A stretch of DNA of 64,000 nt from Octopus vulgaris (Eukaryota). How positions within the stretch are numbered: position 1 is the stretch's first letter; every line of letters starts with the position of its first letter. Made by a program: the position numbers and the translations under genes. Location of the stretch: NCBI GenBank assembly GCA_951406725.2, contig OX597831.1, positions 50,096,001 to 50,160,000 of the forward strand, read 5' to 3'. Of this stretch, positions 11,262 to 51,798 are shown in pieces. The notes beneath the pieces are model-generated. The model was not told the DNA's origin, ran no database searches, and worked only from the letters and a program-made list of their open reading frames with translations.

Positions 11262-14165
11262 CATAAACCTCTTCATTTGTACGAACATGTATTTGTTTGA
11301 ATATATTTTTATCATAACTAATGAGCCTACTATGATAGGAATTGTTTCTGTTTTTAGATGCTGTGTTCGCATCCAGTAAGTCCTCCCCCACCCTCTTTTT
11401 CTTGGTACATACAGTTGTCTGTGTCATTTTTGGGTGGAGTGACCCATATCTAGTTAGCAACTTCCTTGTCTTCCTGTCTAAGATGTTTCGTTCGTCTACT
11501 GTCTATGCGATTACCCCTGCTCTGTATCTAAGGAATGAAACCGTCCACGTGTTGATAGCTTCGATCTTATTCCGTCCGTTTAATTTTGACTTAAGGATCA
11601 GTCTCAGTCTGAGCAAGTACTCCACCTTAAAGTTTTCCTTCATTTCTTTCTCCATCAATTTATCTATTTCCAAAATCCCCAAGTACTTATAGCCCGTCTC
11701 ATATCTGCTTCATAACCTCTTCCGACGGTATCGTTAGCCCGTCCATACATTTGATTTTGCCTCTCTTCAATACTAATACACATCACTTTCTTAGTCCGAA
11801 CTCCATTCTGATATCAGCACTGGAGGTATACACCGTATCAATGAGACAACTGACTTGGGCTTCATCTTTACCATTAAGTTTGAGGTCATCCATGAATAAC
11901 AAATAGTTGACATCGTGCTGGCGGCTTTTGAAAACATACCCAGCCTTTGCTTTCTTCAGAATCAGTGTTTGTGGTATGAAGCACAGTACAATGATCAGTG
12001 GGACAGGCAGTCGCCTTGGAAGATGCCCCTCTTAATTTCTACTGTCCTTAAATTTCTTCCGTATGCTTTCAGATCGCCATACATTTTCGCGATACTTTTT
12101 CCAAGCAACCGCTCAACATTCGATGCAATACCAAATAGGTTGATACACTTCATAATCCAAGAATGTGGCATCATATCGTACGCCTTACGATAGTCGATCC
12201 GTGACATCGCTAAGTTAGTTTTCCTCCTCTTGCAGTCTCTAAGTACAGTTTTGTCTATCAGGAGTCTATCCTTGGTACCTCTGCACTTACGCTTGCATCC
12301 CTTCTGTTCATGTGGCTTGACTCCATTTTTTTCCAGATGTTCGTACATAGACTCTGCGAGTATTCCAGTCAATAACTTCCACATAAGTGGCAAACATGAT
12401 ATTGCCCTGTAATTGTTTACCGTATTGCCATTTTCGATGTTTTTCAGGCACAGCATGGTCCCACCCAATGGCAACCACTCTGGTGTTGCTTGGTCGGCAT
12501 CTAACAATGTGCAAAGCTGCGCAGCTTTTCGTGCATGACATTCACTAAATCTTTTGATCCAGTAGCCTTGGACTCCATCTGCTCCCGGGGTCTTCCAGTT
12601 GCTCATTTTTTGCTGATTTCCTTCACTTTCTTAACTAAAATGACTAGTTCTGTCTGTTTTGGACAGACTACGTATGTTTCAGTTCTTGCAACCTTTCAGC
12701 ATCCTTCTTGTGCTCCTTGTCTTTGCTCCAGATGTCACTCCAAAACCTTTGACTTTCAATGTTATCTGGTATCAACTTTTCATCCATGCATCCTCCATTT
12801 ATTTCTTTATAGAATCTCTTCTGATCTACTCTGAATATCGTATTCTGGTGGTAACCCTTCATTTTTGTTCGTATCTTACCATCTTTGCTTTCTGTGCAAC
12901 GCGTCACTGTTTCAGTTCCTCCACTGGGTCTAACACAGTGATTTCCTTCGAGAGCATGGATTCTTTTTTTCCACCATGGATCTTTTCTTTTGTCACTCCC
13001 ATTATGTTTCTTTTTCTTGACACCAACACCCAAGTTTTCTGCTACAACAATACTTGCTGCCTCGATCAAATTATTTGTTTCTGTGATGTTGTTTGTTCTG
13101 TCAGAATGTCATTGACATTTTTCGTTTCTTGTTTCAATTTCCATCGATCAACATTTTTAACGTTGCAAATAATGTCGCTATCGTTCTCCTGTAGTCTTAC
13201 CTTTATTCTGTCGTAGATTGCCTTTTGTTCATATGTCATGTCGCCATTAGTTTTATTGTTTTCTTTTAGATCAGCTATATGTCTCTCATCAAGTAAACTA
13301 CCACTGCTCCTTTCCTGTGCTATGGGATTACTCTTATTAGTAAGAACTGTATTTTCGTTCTTATCTATGCTGCTATTTTCCATGACCCGTCTTTAGATAG
13401 CTTTGAGCTCTACTTCTGTGAACCAACAATTTTTTCTTATTGCTCTAGCTTGATCACATAGACTCTGTTCCGTGAGTTGAAACAATCCCTTTTCTCTCCA
13501 ATGATCATTCATACGTTGTCGGTAATCCCATCCCTAATTTGAACACCATTTTCATCTACCGGGCTCCTCAGGTGACGATAAAAACAACAAAAATTATGAT
13601 AATGAAAACAGTTATGATGAGGAAAATAACGGTGATGCCACTGACGACAACAACCAAGATGGGGCTGATAAAAACGGCAATGATGATGATAACTAAAATG
13701 ACGACAACGTTGGTGACAATGACAATTAGGAAATACAGAGGTAGACACTGTATTTGATGGCGACAGTAGTAACTACAATGAAGGCAACCATGATGAAAGC
13801 CAATACATTTATTACTGTATGAAGAACGCACGAGTGTCAGAGTCAAGGTTGCCAAACGAAACTAACACTCCATGACCCACAGCATTAATTTGCTTGCTCT
13901 ATCTACACAGTGTGTGGTGGTCCTTTCTGGATGCCAACAGGCTGGAATCAGACCAGATTCTCTGAGCCTTCCGGGTGTAACACTGTCACCATCATTGGCT
14001 TCAGTTTCATTCACACCGTTATTCACTATATTTTGTTTTTTTTCATTGTCACTCATATGAGGTAGCGATTATCAGGTTGCGCAATTACCAGTGTTTTTAT
14101 TGTGACACCATCACTAGATGTATCATTAATCAGCTCATGAGGAGGAGGCGGCTCCACCCGTTTCC
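11262..14165 (-). mobile_element. R4/Dong-like non-LTR retrotransposon, frameshifted and 3'-truncated
   Basis: N-terminal [32 protein letters not shown], then RT motifs [60 protein letters not shown]. No RLE endonuclease region remains. Confidence 0.88.
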
Positions 14166-31964: not shown

Positions 31965-32028
<64 letters not shown>

Positions 32029-32062
32029 CCAACTAATTAGAGAGAGAGTTAGCTTAGATCAG

Positions 32063-33397
32063 ATGCAGTTTGGGTTCGTGCCAGGGAAAAGTACTACTGA
32101 TGCTATATTCCTGGTAAGACAGCTGCAGGAGAAATACCTAGCCAAAGATAAGCCCTTGTACCTGACTTTTGTTGACATGGAGAAAGCCTTCGACAGGGTC
32201 CCCCGATCCCTTATCTGGTGGTCAATGAAGAAACTAGGGATAGATGAATGGTTAGTGAGAGCTGTGCGAGCCATGTACAGAGATGCTGCTAGTAAGGTGA
32301 GGGTTGGCAACGAGTACAGTGAAGAATTCCGGGTAGAGGTTGGGGTCCACCAAGGTTCAGTCCTCAGTACCCTCCTATTTATCATAGTCCTCCAGGCAAT
32401 AACGGAGGAATTCAAGACAGGATGCCCCTGGGAGCTCCTCTATGCTGATGACCTTGCTCTAATTGCTCAGTCACTATCAGAACTGGAGGAGAAGTTTCAG
32501 GTGTGGAAGCAAGGATTAGAATCGAAGGGCCTTAGAATCAACCTAGCCAAAACTAAAGTCCTAATAAGTAGGAAGGTAGACCAATCACAAACGACTTCAA
32601 GTAGATGGCCCTGCTCGATCCGTAAAAAAAGTGTAGGTAGAAACTCTATAAGGTGCACCAAGTGTAAGCTATGGACACATAAGAGGTGCAGCAATGTCAA
32701 AGAAAGGCTAACTAGGAAAATAGTTTTTGTCTGTGGCAGATGCTCAGGAGCAATAAACACTGGAAATGTGCAGAGACCAACTTCTACCACGTTCCAGGGA
32801 GACAAACTAGAAGTAGTTGATAGCTTCTGCTACCTAGGTGACCAACTCAGTAGCGGGGGTGGGTGTGCTGAAAGTGTAACTGCTAGAGTAAGAATAGCCT
32901 GGGCAAAGTTTAGAGATATCTTACCCCTGCTGGTGACAAAAGGCCTCTCGCTCAGAGTAAAAGGCAGACTGTATGATGCATGTGTACGTACAGCCATGCT
33001 ACATGGTAGTGAAACATGGGCCGTGACTGCTGAAGATATGCGTAAGCTCGCAAGAAATGAAGCCAGTATGCTCCGATGGATGTGTAATGTCAGTGTTCAT
33101 AATCGACAGAGTGTAAGTACCTTGAGAGAAAAGTTGGACCTAAGAAGCATTAGTTGTGGTGTGCTGCAAGAGAGACGTTTGCGCTGGTATGGTCATGTGA
33201 CGAGAATGGCTGATGATAGTTGTGTGCAAAAGTGCCACACCCTAGCAGTTGAGGGAACCTGTGGAAGAGGTAGACCCAGGAAAACCTGGGACGAGGTGGT
33301 GAAGCACGACCATCGAACTTTAGGTCTCACTGAGGAAATGACTAGAGACCGAGACCTATGGAAGTATGCTGTGAGTGAGAAGACCCGGCAAGACTAG
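32063..33397 (+). CDS. RTE reverse transcriptase (C-terminal 444 aa; the ATG is internal) with embedded PHD-like Cys/His finger
   Basis: QFGFVPGKSTTDAIF, FVDMEKAFDRVP, GVHQGSVLS.LLF, LLYADDL, FCYLG, HGSETW, RLRWYGHV.RM, GRGRPRKTW. Confidence 0.92.
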   Translation: MQFGFVPGKSTTDAIFLVRQLQEKYLAKDKPLYLTFVDMEKAFDRVPRSLIWWSMKKLGIDEWLVRAVRAMYRDAASKVRVGNEYSEEFRVEVGVHQGSVLSTLLFIIVLQAITEEFKTGCPWELLYADDLALIAQSLSELEEKFQVWKQGLESKGLRINLAKTKVLISRKVDQSQTTSSRWPCSIRKKSVGRNSIRCTKCKLWTHKRCSNVKERLTRKIVFVCGRCSGAINTGNVQRPTSTTFQGDKLEVVDSFCYLGDQLSSGGGCAESVTARVRIAWAKFRDILPLLVTKGLSLRVKGRLYDACVRTAMLHGSETWAVTAEDMRKLARNEASMLRWMCNVSVHNRQSVSTLREKLDLRSISCGVLQERRLRWYGHVTRMADDSCVQKCHTLAVEGTCGRGRPRKTWDEVVKHDHRTLGLTEEMTRDRDLWKYAVSEKTRQD

Positions 33398-36319: not shown

Positions 36320-37675
36320 ATAACATGGTTTCCGACCAGGGAGAAGCTGTTTAACTCAGCTCCTACAACACTATGACTGGGTGCTGAAACGGCTGCTCAA
36401 CCACTCAAATGTGGAAGTGATATATCTCGACTTTGCAAAGGCCTTTGATAAAGTCGATCATGGAATGATGTCACAAACTGCGTGATCTCAACATAGTTGG
36501 AAAACTGGGAGAATGGCTTCATGACTTTCTGAAAGATAGAAGTCAGGTGGTAGTAGCCACCTTCCATTAACACGCAAATAGTGAGCGGTGTTCCGCAGGC
36601 CACTGTTCTGGGACCACTACTGTTCATAATGGCCCTCTCAGACATGCCCTCAGCCACGCAGAGAGCCACGATCACAAGTTATGCAGATGATACAAAAGTT
36701 TCACAGGCAATACAGAACCATGAGGACACTAAACGCCTGCAATGTGAGCTGGACAAAATATACAAGTGGGCTGAAAAGAATAGCATGCAGTTCAATGCTG
36801 AAAAGTTTCAAGCTTTATACTATCAGCATGCAAAACTGAATGCAATACCCAATGAATACACTGGACCCGGAGGAATAGCAATCCCAGAGGCACAATCAGT
36901 GCGTGACCTTGGTATTTACATGAGTGATGACGCAACCTTTCGTGTACATGTTGCTAAATTGGCAATGAAATGTAGACGACTGGCCGGATGGATTCTCAGA
37001 ACCTTTAGAACAAGAGAACAAGAAACCATGATGGTCCTCTGGAGGACACTTGTCCTAAGCCACTTTGACTACTGCTCTCAGTTATGGTCACCATCCAGTG
37101 TCAAGTTGATCACAGAGCTCGAGGCGATCCAGCGTAGCTACACAAAGAAGATAGCCTCTATGCAGAATGTAAGCTAATGGGAAAGACTCAAGAGATTAAA
37201 ACTATATTCCTTGGAGCGTAGGCGGGAAAGATATGCCATAATATACATCTGGAAGATCCTGGAGGGACGTGTCCCAAACTTTGGCATCGAGAGTTACACA
37301 AATGCCAGAACTGGGCCACTGCGTGGTGCCTAGGTCTCCAAATTTGCCATCAAGATGTAGGACAAGATACTGTGATAGCCTGGCCTTCCGAGGCCCACAG
37401 CTCTTCAATATCCTCCCGAAGAACCTGAGAGACCTGCATGGGGTGGATGCAGATGTCTTTAAAATGGAACTAGATCTCTTCCTGTCAGGTGTCCCAGATG
37501 AACCAACTTCACGGCAGGAGGTGCATATGAGGGCAGCTGCATCGAACTCTCTCATGCACCAAATGGCAGTTGCTAAAAAAGCTTTCGTGAAGTAAAACCA
37601 AGTAGCAACACCAAATGGCGGTGCCCCAGCATGGCCACAGCTCATGAGCTGAAACTAGAATCAATCAATCAATCA
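36320..37675 (+). mobile_element. CR1-group LINE 3' portion (RT pseudogene), (ATCA)n tail
   Basis: HGFRPGRSCLTQLL, IYLDFAKAFDKVDHG, SGVPQATVLGPLLF, SYADDTK, RDLGI, DYCSQLWSP, LEAIQRSYTK; contains frameshifts and stops. Confidence 0.9.
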
Positions 37676-37852: not shown

Positions 37853-37935
37853 TTTTCGACATATGTTTCGAAGGCTGCATATTCCTAATTGTGAAGGAAT
37901 AAGGAGTACATTATGCCGCTTTCTCATCAGGAAAA
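37853..37935 (-). ncRNA. Type I hammerhead ribozyme, intact core, long stem II
   Basis: TTTTC-CTGATGA-[54-nt stem II GAAAGCGGCATA...TATGCAGCCTTC]-GAAA-CATATG-TC-GAAAA. Confidence 0.85.
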
Positions 37936-38025
37936 ACAAGCAATTTATGTCAACATCAAGATTCACAAAAACTTTTAGATGAGTGCTCTCACGGAGCGCA
38001 TAGCGATAATGAGTGTCTCTTTCAT

Positions 38026-40657
38026 ATGGAGTTGTTCGAAATTAACGCATCCCTTAAGGACATACCAATACCATCAAAAGAAACCTTCCTTAAGGAAATT
38101 GTCAACAAAACAAATGCATTCATCAACCGAATTAGATGGCTCACTTTCTTCCATGATAATGCGGATATAAAACAGAACTGTACCGAAACATCTTCCGAAT
38201 ATAAGAAGTTATACAAGTCAAGGGAAACCACTCCACCTAATCCCATACTGAAGAAATTTGAGGACGATCTTTGGGATATTGTAAGGGGCATTAAATTCCG
38301 TAAATCACCCCTTAGGAATAAACACCTAAAATACCTCAACGAAGTCACCAAAGATATAAACAAGTTAGACGCTATACTAGTCCAATCAGATAAAAGCAGG
38401 AATACATATAAGATAGCAAAAAAACAGTATTTACATATGCTCAAGAAAGAAATACAGAAGAATTACAAAACAATAAATAAGAATAAACTCAGACAAGCCA
38501 ACTTGGAAATTAAGAAAATCATGGAAACATATGGATTAGAAATAAAAACACAACCGCTGAACCCCAGACAACCAAGATTTATAGTGAAGGAACATAAACC
38601 AAATTTTCTCAGCAACCCGGCATTAAGGCTCATATGCCCCTCTAGTTCCGACATCGGTTCCATTAGTAAGTACATTTTAGATAAATACATACCTAAATTA
38701 ATCAATAAGTTAAAACTCAACTTATGGTCTAACTCCACTCAAGTCGTAGATTTGTTTTCTTCTATTTCTAATAAAAACAGCACAAAATTCATTCAATTCG
38801 ACATATCCAATTTCTACCCTTCGATTAACCCTAGTGTACTTAATAAGGCCCTATAGCACGCTCATAATAAGGCAGGACTCTCAAGGGGGAAATTAATATA
38901 ATTTTAGCGGCTAGAAAATCCTTCATAAAGTTCGATGATAAGTTATGGGTACGTAAGGATATCCCCAACGCGTTCGATGTACCAATGGGAAGCTCAGACA
39001 GCGCCCAGATAGCCGATTTGGTCGGAATCTATATTCTTTACGAGTTAGCCGACCAATTCCCGGACATCTGCGGCGGTCTCTATCGAGACGATTGTCTACT
39101 TTACCTACAGAATGCTCCGAACAGATTGATACAAAAGACTAAAAACAGATTAGCTAGATTTTTTAGCAGAATGGGCATGGCCATAGTTTTCAACGACGAG
39201 CTAACGAAAGCTAACTTCTTAGATGTTACCCTAAATCCGTAAAATAACTCTTATTTCCCTTACCACAAACCTTCTACTAACCTTAAATATGTCAGCATTT
39301 TCAGCAACCATGCCAAAAATATCACCGATAATTTAGTTAAAAATATATCTTTAAGACTATCAAATTTATCTGCGAATGTCGACATTTTTAAACAAAAAGC
39401 GGAATTTTATAATGCCGCCTTGTCAAAAGCCGGTTATAGGGATAAGGTATCATATATCGACCCGGCCCATTCTAAACTAAAATTTGCTTCTCAGGATAAG
39501 AAAACTTATAACAATAGTAGCAATGTAAATAGTGATTTTAGCTCTAACAACGTCGACACCAAGATACTTAACAAAAACAATTTATGGACCAGAGGAGGCA
39601 ATCGAAAACCAACACCAATTCTACAACACAGAAATACTCCCTTTAATGTAAATGTTAACACTCTGAGCCATTCTAAGTAAAAAAAAAACTATATCTGGTT
39701 TGTCATTCCTTTCGGGAAACAAATCAGGTCTAACCTCCCTTTACAGTTCCGTGAATCAGTAGCTAGGAATTTCCCAGGAATTCTAGGTATTATTCTTCCA
39801 TCAACTCGCATAAGGTAAGGATTGCATTCTCCAACACTAGCAATCTATCGCAGATAAATGCCTCCCATAATAATAAGCTGCTAAATAAGGACTCATCACC
39901 CGGGGATAGCGACACTACCCTTGCTAATTCCAACCTAACATACAATAATAATAGTAATAGAAAAAGTATCGATATTAGGAGCAGAATGTGCGTTAACGAC
40001 AGTAATATTGATAATAATATTAATCAGTTTATTAACAGTGGTGAAGTTAGTGATAATAGCAACAACAGTTCTAATAACAGTGGTATTATTGATGATAATA
40101 ATCCTAGCATCCCTATAGTCAGAGAAATTGCCGACGATATTACAATTATTAGTAATGATAATAATAGGAATAGTATCGTGACCAATGCTAGCAATAACAA
40201 TTACACCTATCATAACAATAAAAACTCCGTATTAGTCTCGGAGGTTAACCCCAACAGATTAAAGTTCTTATCCAAAAATTCTAAAATTAGAAACACAATT
40301 TACCAATGCAAAATTTCTTCGGGTACCGATGTCTTCTTTTACATAGGGGCAACTTCGTCTAAATTAGCCCGAAGGATCTCCAACCATTATTCAACTTTCC
40401 GAGATAAGAGAAAACAACACAGCACGGGATTAAGCAAACTAATTTAGCGTCTGAAAGACAGCAATTCAACCTTCAAGCTGGAATAGTCCATTTTGTCGGT
40501 ATCCGTTCCGTTTGATAAGGGCAGAAAAATGTGTGGGGTCTGTAATTCTGAATTTTTTCATATATTATTCGCCAAAGTACCTTTAATAAATTCAATCGTT
40601 GAGAGGTCCTACAGGTGTTTGCACCGGAGAAAACACACCTTTCACTCATATGAATAA
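38026..40657 (+). pseudogene. PLE RT-GIY-YIG polyprotein, disrupted by stops and frameshifts
   Basis: SLKDIPIPS..RIRW, DKSRNTY, RLICP, FIQFDISNFYPSI, FDVPMGSSD, GLYRDD, NFLDVTL, SNH, IYQCKI..YIGAT..R..NH, CGVC, CLH. Confidence 0.9.
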
Positions 40658-50813: not shown

Positions 50814-51546
50814 GTGAGATATCTCACACATACGCACACAAACACACACACACACAAATACACACACACCGACGGACACACTGGAAAGCCTTTGATCCTA
50901 AATATACTCGATCGAGGCCGATATAGCAGCCTAATGCACTCGAATAACAACGGCAGTAACAACAACATATATCTCAAATAGATTTGTAGACACCACATAA
51001 AAATATTTTAATTCGATAGGAAATATAAAAGCTGTGATATTTATGGACTTTTTTTTACAATAGCCTTAGCAATAATGGCGAAAATGAAATAAAGTTGTAA
51101 AGAACTATGTAAAGACTTTGAAGGACCATTGTTGATGTCCTGTTAAGTGAAATAACTCAACAGAGAAAAAAAAAACATCTCTAATCACCAATCACTTTTC
51201 GCAGAGATTAACCCTACGTCAGTCACTTCAACCACACAAACTAATAGAGTTTAGGAACTTTTGCCCCTAACAAAGAAAGCTGAAACGTAAAAGGCAGCCA
51301 TTCTCGAAATACATGAATAAAAAGATGATAAGAATTTGCAAATACGGCCGTAAATTCATTATTTAAATTATTTACACTATTTACATTCGACGGATATTTG
51401 TCCTCATCTTGTTTGTTGTTAACACAATATTTCGGCTGATATAGCATCCAGCCTTTTTCAGGTGTCTTGGGGAAATTCGAACCTGGGTTCTCATTCCTAA
51501 GGGTTTTTTTTTTTCGATTTTATTATTATTGTTATTGTTATTGTTT

Positions 51547-51603
51547 AGGTCACTGCTTGGAGTCGGACTCGGAATCTTGGGGTTAGTAGCCCGCGCTCTT
51601 AAT
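51547..51603 (-). other. tRNA-Ile(AAU)-like SINE head, 5'-truncated (not a functional tRNA)
   Basis: TTAAGAGCGCGGGCTACTAACCCCAAGATTCCGAGTCCGACTCC vs metazoan tRNA-Ile TTAGAGCGTGGTGCTAATAACGCCAAGGTCGCGGGTTCGATCCC (recalled sequence). Confidence 0.65.
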
Positions 51604-51651
51604 ATCGAAAAATACCTTAGGAATGAGGTCCCAGGTTCGAAATTTCCCCAA

Positions 51652-51697
51652 GACACCTGAAGAAGGCTGGAGGGTATATCAGCCGAAACGTTGTGTT
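51652..51697 (+). ncRNA. Minimal type I hammerhead (extra A after core, GUU site)
   Basis: GACAC-CTGAAGA-A-GGCTG(GAGGGTATAT)CAGCC-GAAA-CG-TT-GTGTT; decayed mirror copy at 51421-51466 (-). Confidence 0.75.
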
Positions 51698-51798
51698 AAC
51701 AACAAAGAGGAGGACAAATATCCGTCGAATGTAAATAATGTAACTAATGTACATAATTCCTCATCTCTTAAATATCGAACGGACGTAAGTTGCTTTAA

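Follow-up and report, generated by a model that had tools for sequence, protein, structure and literature searches.

A Penelope-type pseudo-LTR pair with a tRNA-derived head, a probable Pol III promoter, in the octopus genome

Background

Schistosoma SM-alpha is a short repeat that carries a type I hammerhead and is tied to the pseudo-LTRs (pLTRs) of Penelope-like elements (PLEs). The octopus SINEs OK, OR1 and OR2 were reportedly described by Ohshima and Okada in 1994; the family treated here has been set beside OK and OR1 by SINE class only. OR2 has been named a CORE-SINE (PMC4758252; here and below, published papers are cited for the sections drawn upon). Inverted arms, a one-sided tail and target site duplications (TSDs) are published PLE traits (PMC8557442, PMC3846280). 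For the anole Poseidon element, internal starts of reverse transcription have been demonstrated in vitro, and self-cleavage is not needed for insertion in vitro (PMC11167929). The sole PLE promoter mapped so far, that of D. virilis Penelope, is LINE-like, TATA-less and internal (PMC2377424). The autonomous partners of TRIMp3 elements, it has been argued, must use Pol II (PMC10886601).

In the literature searched, neither a PLE whose pLTR carries a tRNA-derived promoter nor a SINE mobilised by Penelope is described, although Repbase, Dfam, supplements and Ohshima and Okada (1994) may list the family by a different name. In the terms looked up, no such element appears in the sections drawn upon of the cephalopod repeat papers PMC13282606 and PMC8967140, of SINEBase (PMC3531059) or of PMC4758252, and those of the first three hold 0 mentions of "hammerhead".

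The locus described here lies in a 64,000-nt stretch of octopus DNA (the window). The original prediction saw in it a non-autonomous SINE, formed when a tRNA-Ile promoter was fused to a hammerhead-bearing PLE pLTR, and inserted by Penelope machinery.

Results

Structure of the insertion

The segment 51344-51791 is a single insertion in which two 5'-truncated pLTR copies stand head to head inside a 13-bp TSD (Table 1); the two arms belong to one insertion because this TSD, absent from the earlier description of the locus, encloses both. Head, linker, body, hammerhead and inverted second copy are all present where they had been described, except that the head, placed earlier at 51603-51547, begins at 51602 and overlaps the opposite arm by 3 nt. 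The whole minus arm runs from 51602 to 51357 and comprises the head, an AAT/AAC linker, the body from 51518 and a decayed hammerhead. In the window head the A box has been removed by the 5' truncation and the B box (51570-51559) is mutated. ARAGORN called 0 tRNA genes in the 64-kb window, and among the 150 of 219 matches listed an Rfam scan of the window gave no tRNA or hammerhead family, just repeat-driven miRNA-type matches.

Table 1. Features of the insertion at 51344-51791 of the window
Feature	Coordinates	Strand	Evidence or remark
Left TSD, 13 bp	51344..51356	+	11/13 identical to 51779-51791
Short tail-less arm: body (PLE ORF 5' end), stopping at the inner 3' terminus	51357..51518	-	140/153 identical to family majority
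Decayed minimal hammerhead, core CUGAAAA, stem III altered	51421..51466	-	sequence
Copy of ORF start codon	51492..51494	-	minus arm
(AAT/AAC)n linker of pLTR	51519..51545	-	12 to >100 nt in other copies
tRNA-derived head, positions 19-75	51546..51602	-	53/56 identical to majority head
3-nt overlap where the 5' ends of both arms join	51600..51602	.	sequence
Long tailed arm: body, hammerhead and tail	51604..51780	+	170/180 identical to majority
First 53 codons of the 838-aa PLE ORF, open from ATG	51623..51781	+	N-terminus match to P0005; tandem copies continue into RT
Intact minimal type I hammerhead motif, palindromic stem III remnant	51652..51697	+	predicted cut after 51692
PLE tail, ~30 nt, plus arm only	51753..51780	+	one-sided tail as in family pairs
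Right TSD	51779..51791	+	11/13 match with 51344-51356

The hammerhead core reported at 51652-51697 is intact on the plus arm, with stem I at 51652-56/51693-97, CUGAAGA at 51657-63, stem II at 51665-69/51680-84 and GAAA at 51685-88. The motif agrees with published traits of minimal hammerheads (PMC4209133) and is classed as a minimal type I hammerhead with predicted cleavage. Folded by itself, 51645-51705 does not outdo its shuffles (z -0.81), which is what a minimal hammerhead should give, and co-folding of two copies did not yield the active dimer, which energy folding cannot model. The core regex is present in 78/122 solo and 27/54 ORF-linked arms.

Abundance and linkage of the parts

Exact searches of the source genome (2.8 Gb, 227 contigs, the window being on contig C18) gave 5,674 matches for a 22-mer of the hammerhead, 5,148 for a 20-mer of the head and 2,238 for a 25-mer of the head 5' end, with 0 for each reversed-pattern control. 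Copies diverge from the majority by ~4-6% outside CpG, so that exact matching gives a minimum for the number of copies. A first-look search with the long arm gave 1,525 candidates, the best 40 of which are 91-95% identical to it. Of 30 position-ordered head matches, 24 have a body next to the head in the same orientation and in the order head, body, so that the co-occurrence asked for in the original prediction extends beyond the window locus. Chance nesting of head and body was rejected on this order, on the genome-wide linkage and on the position of the head after the ORF.

Two other arrangements were encountered. At L019 (982-1680) a complete body is preceded by four tandem repeats of the head plus a short folded-back piece of body. 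Loci L104, L108, L109, L116 and L133 on contig C31 are near-identical and lie within larger duplicated blocks, and represent segmental duplication rather than independent insertions.

The parent element

The head, (AAT)n linker, hammerhead and tail are the pLTR of an autonomous Penelope/Poseidon-type family in the source genome. An autonomous PLE sharing the hammerhead and tail had been proposed as something to look for, and it was found: the majority of 70 pieces is a unit of 2,659 nt in the order head, (AAT)n, an 838-aa ORF with RT and GIY-YIG parts, a 30-nt 3' UTR and the next head, with the ATG of the ORF inside the "body". The majority ORF shows LAMGSP, YVDD and GIY-YIG-type motifs in order and matches RVT_1 at E 1.2e-09; a Pfam search of L122 gave no GIY-YIG match, the endonuclease assignment being based on motifs read by eye. 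The "Poseidon-type" label is likewise provisional, given on domain order and architecture. A promoter fused to a PLE pLTR to give a non-autonomous SINE is not supported by this arrangement, in which the head belongs to the pLTR of the autonomous element itself, 30 nt past the ORF stop.

Loci anchored on different parts of the ORF agree. Four head loci have a common upstream sequence, whose translation is the end of a Penelope-type RT plus a GIY-YIG-type endonuclease. At endonuclease-anchored loci the head lies directly 3' of the ORF in 26/30 (BLAST), with the query and four C31 copies that are nearly identical included in the count. With the database relative P0002 as query, RT-anchored loci have the head after the ORF in 23/30, while six of the other seven are without an ORF end and one has a decayed head; the same search, made for a headless sister family, gave the tRNA-headed family at all 30 loci. 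At the opposite side, the tail continues into the ORF in 24/30 loci anchored on the 5' part of the ORF, and the order head, linker, body, ORF is found in L145, L148, L157 and L167 (the L145 row of alignment A2, which was in the wrong orientation, was disregarded).

The "~50-nt body", hammerhead and tail of the original prediction do exist, but as protein-coding sequence. Because the plus arm is open from the ATG at 51623 and its 53 codons match the N-terminus of the full-length relative P0005 (45% identity over 42 aa, E 7e-07), these three parts represent the ORF's own first ~53 codons. With its RT and GIY-YIG ORF, a pLTR that includes the ORF start, an inverted arm, tail and TSD, and a hammerhead motif, the family has the features of EN+ Penelope-like elements.

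The majority ORF is 55-75% identical to 24 database proteins. A scan of JGI metagenomes (27/64 parts) gave six relatives at 25-41% identity, none of which matches the head. The closest database proteins (P0001-P0008, P0039-P0046) are 57-75% identical to the majority ORF, with P0001-P0003 at 66-75%, and one cluster among them contains barnacle records. Horizontal transfer may be involved.

Insertion signature

The insertion signature of the family, consisting of inverted arms, a one-sided tail and TSDs, is of the ordinary PLE type, and insertion by Penelope machinery is upheld. The 3' ends of 90 position-ordered hammerhead arms lie at body positions 138-157 (49) or 175-182 (37), with none at 158-174 and four shorter; there are thus two 3' termini ~30 nt apart, one per arm, and both recur as loose-end peaks in sequencing runs of other labelled organisms. 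Self-cleavage does not set these 3' ends, which lie ~50-95 nt past the predicted hammerhead cut. Among 61 inverted pairs (one locus entered twice), 51 could be classed, and exactly one arm is tailed in 46 of them (25.4 expected, p 7e-9). TSDs score above threshold in 34 of these 46 long/short pairs, against 1.3% of shuffled pairs, and measure 8-16 nt, mostly 10-14 nt; the 13-bp TSD of the window scored just below this threshold. TSDs had been named beforehand, together with a LINE tail and poly(A), among findings that would refute the original prediction; this was misplaced, as they are a published PLE feature (PMC3846280).

The AC/GT loop and the tailed arm showed no pattern among 8 junctions. 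By position, 30/90 arms were classed as ending within the linker. Arms cut short in the (AAT)n linker often join the (AAT)n end of another abundant repeat (L002, L010, L028, L143, L150, L248, L270), which suggests microsatellite-guided 5' joining. Throughout the family, inverted arms are 85-95% identical and would form long dsRNA if read through in host transcripts.

The tRNA-derived head

The original prediction of a tRNA-Ile head holds as far as derivation from a tRNA is concerned, and the Ile assignment is not supported. Among the retrieved tRNAs, which cover 10 isoacceptor classes, the best match is tRNA-Arg(TCG), with a score of 44 against a shuffle maximum of 20; a pattern search for tRNA-Ile genes gave 6 matches, none called Ile. 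On sequence similarity Arg is favoured among the 10 classes retrieved, Ile not being one of them. The A box sought in a consensus is present in the majority head, where both A and B boxes fit the consensus exactly. Pairing left in the majority head amounts to 2/7 in the acceptor stem, 3/5 in the T stem and 1/4 in the D stem, and ARAGORN at a lowered threshold found nothing in it. To judge from these features the head has kept its putative promoter boxes and lost the cloverleaf.

A search of the fetched loci for a SINE that might have donated the head gave other tRNA-headed repeats with just 64-77% local identity, and 11 body-less heads among these loci have no common alternative 3' part. In the 30-nt 3' UTR that precedes the head (e.g. 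L066, 1470-1500), about 17 bases resemble the beginning of the head in inverted and decayed form; they may be left over from the joining event that originally brought the head behind the ORF.

The 5' ends of 82 head-bearing arms lie at +32 to +14 (12 arms), at +13 to about -8 (61) or 63-820 nt upstream (9), with stop rates per nt of 0.008, at least 0.04 and 0.002, respectively. According to BLAST, 46 of these 61 boundary arms start at +1 to +3; inspection by eye takes two of them 20-27 nt into the UTR. Altogether ~59/82 arms stop within the first bases of the head. Among runs with other organism labels, X15 and X22 likewise show loose ends where the head starts, and X16 and X20 contain the ORF-UTR-head junction. 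We read the locus as a pLTR pair of an autonomous PLE, in which the tRNA-derived A/B-box head is probably a Pol III promoter that sets the 5' end of the RNA.

Two other explanations of the 5' pile-up were considered. It is rather unlikely that the tRNA-derived sequence is a passenger in an element transcribed by Pol II, the pile-up arising by fold-back or annealing of cDNA ends at a palindrome at head +1. A hairpin is indeed predicted from about -23 to +17 of the head start, across the UTR/head junction (folded as a join with one extra base), and 17/61 boundary arms have a palindromic junction by regex. Moreover, pLTR 5' ends in Adineta carry palindromes of 18 and 38 bp with no tRNA head reported in the sections drawn upon (PMC3846280), so that a 5' pile-up need not mark a promoter. 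However, the remaining 44/61 boundary arms are without such a junction, mostly begin at +1 to +3 and often meet the other arm at a position unrelated to their own, which speaks against the palindrome as the full explanation. Also against a passenger are the two boxes, perfect although stem pairing is lost, and the absence of TTTT from the unit (see below). It is very improbable that the RNA 5' end at head +1 is made by other means, either a coinciding Pol II start or RNase P-like cutting. Either would account for the pile-up equally well and would sidestep translation of an uncapped RNA, but the conserved boxes would be left unexplained, and RNase P needs the acceptor and T stems, which are broken here.

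Solo and ORF-linked repeats

Solo and ORF-linked repeats share variants: G64A of the head is found in 33/78 solo and 24/46 ORF-linked copies, T58A of the hammerhead in 26/126 and 19/56, and A127G in 25/139 and 15/54. Non-CpG divergence of the head is 5.5% in solo and 5.7% in ORF-linked copies. Differences near the hammerhead are ascertainment, because most solo loci were picked on the exact 22-mer. No solo-specific variant was found among about 80 solo and 58 ORF-linked heads, a sample in which small solo clades could be missed. Given the shared variants and equal age, no separate SINE lineage is seen.

A non-autonomous SINE lineage with a tRNA head and borrowed pLTR, its own masters and PLE enzymes is accordingly quite improbable and largely refuted. 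In its favour, the short copies have a defined 5' start as SINEs do, and head copies outnumber UTR copies ~6 to 1, a 20-mer of the 3' UTR 60 nt upstream of the head having 843 genome matches against the 5,148 of the head. Nevertheless the head belongs to the ORF-bearing copies, with which the solo copies share variants and age. As in tRNA-derived SINEs, a head with A and B boxes is present; against the definition of such SINEs as non-autonomous repeats whose head is absent from the partner, it is found in ORF-bearing copies, and in place of a LINE-derived 3' end with poly(A) or a simple repeat there is PLE ORF sequence with two fixed termini. Within the autonomous-PLE reading, solo repeats may still behave as SINEs do, with transcription by Pol III and copying in trans.

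Terminator content and transcription

The 2,659-nt sense majority holds 0 TTTT, against a mean of 2.98 in synonymous shuffles (P(0) 0.023); P(0) is 0.006 under a mononucleotide null and 0.23 under a second-order Markov null. TT, TTT and TTNTT are also low in the sense majority, and A5 runs are also depleted (P 0.014). Among controls, 14 loci of other RT-bearing elements were fetched, of which 12 with PLE-type ORFs were used and two without such an ORF omitted; these 12 ORFs, from other PLE families in the source genome, hold 5-17 TTTT each, near expectation, and constitute two related groups rather than 12 independent controls. They show 28-29% identity to the family RT and no head match, and the two that were scanned have weak GIY-YIG matches. 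Within the window, 2/4 LINE fragments are also without TTTT. The missing TTTT lends modest support to Pol III transcription.

Further retroelements were noted in passing. Loci L387-L400 are two young groups of other PLE-type elements, TTTT-rich, with long intact frames and ~93-99% identity within each group, one group having a T-tract of ~20-30 nt right after the stop codon. In the window, LINE-like retroelement ORF fragments with RVT_1 matches lie at 32027-33394 (+), 36557-37174 (+) and 11998-12630 (-), and a 317-aa open frame with no clear Pfam match at 37903-38853 (+). To the eye this frame may correspond to the N-terminal region of a further PLE-type ORF.

In three RNA-seq runs of organism B, no sharply defined sites were seen at which reads begin or end, but short Pol III RNAs would escape libraries of this kind. 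Orientations are equal in these data (run strandedness not given), and the 5' part of the ORF is nearly uncovered. Strand-switch joints abound in these runs, as do reads of either orientation.

An uncapped Pol III RNA would make a poor mRNA. That the element is wholly transcribed by Pol III, with a 2.9-kb terminator-free RNA serving as mRNA and template and solo repeats as SINE-like parasites, is conceivable though unlikely; if true, a SINE and its partner would be combined in one element.

Discussion

Under the reading of the head as a probable Pol III promoter, insertion may be pictured as follows. The endonuclease would cut both strands with a stagger of ~12 nt, and each 3'-OH would act as primer for reverse transcription, which would begin at either of two internal sites in the 5' end of the ORF. 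From such 5'-proximal sites the cDNA would run off the RNA at the Pol III start after ~250-300 nt and give SINE-sized arms, and short homology or the palindrome at head +1 would provide the joint between the two cDNAs. Either the tandem RNA of the master or transcripts of solo repeats whose boxes are intact may serve as template, and the present data fit both. Full-length copies would need read-through to the next repeat, which the absence of TTTT would permit to Pol III. Since reverse transcription would start internally, ~250-300 nt from the 5' end of a head-initiated RNA, SINE-sized copies would need no SINE gene.

Several consequences follow. Autonomous retrotransposons are expected to use Pol II; a PLE that bears a tRNA-type promoter at its repeat boundary and has no terminator in a 2.7-kb strand would be an exception open to test. 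Internal initiation of reverse transcription on an RNA with a fixed 5' end would be a route to SINE-like elements without a LINE. The near-strict pairing of long and short arms inside TSDs of ~12 nt supports, from genomic data, a model in which both strands prime and RT starts at two sites. Repeat annotations are likely to list copies of this kind wrongly as SINEs.

Comparison with tRNA-derived SINEs shows an A/B-box head, a defined 5' start, a length of ~250-300 nt and thousands of copies in common; unlike SINEs, the octopus family has the 5' end of a PLE ORF as its 3' part, no poly(A) or simple-repeat end, inverted pairs and no separate lineage. The TRIMp3 elements Cassandra, Helenus and Ajax, the nearest in concept, likewise have a Pol III promoter derived from a small RNA inside the terminal repeat; they are non-autonomous LTR elements, whereas the octopus head sits in an autonomous PLE (PMC10886601). 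Instead of true LTRs with PBS/PPT and no coding, the octopus family has the pLTR of an RT-encoding element. Metazoan non-LTR retrozymes (10.64898/2026.07.22.740005, PMC7761336) are likewise short repeats with a type I hammerhead and a link to PLE pLTRs; they form head-to-tail arrays that are cut into monomer circles, whereas octopus copies are single or inverted with 3' ends off the cut site. The 90 position-ordered hammerhead matches are mostly single or inverted, with at most a few direct neighbours.

Among the closest systems are the Penelope/Poseidon PLEs, namely anole Poseidon (PMC11167929), Adineta Pen2/Pen2a (PMC3846280) and D. virilis Penelope (PMC2377424), with which the octopus family has in common an ORF with RT and C-terminal GIY-YIG, partial tandems, a pLTR that includes the first codons, a minimal hammerhead at the ORF start, an inverted 5'-truncated arm, a 30-40-nt tail on one end, palindromes at inverted junctions and TSDs, which are 8-10 bp in Adineta (PMC3846280). 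As in anole Poseidon, body, hammerhead and tail fall within the first codons of the ORF; in that element the ORF starts at hammerhead stem II and reverse transcription 111-118 nt into the ORF (PMC11167929). Unlike these PLEs, the octopus pLTR has as its non-coding half a tRNA-derived A/B-box head plus (AAT)n, its short copies stop at the first bases of the head and its sense strand is without TTTT. The family is a member of the EN+ PLEs that is set apart by its tRNA-derived repeat.
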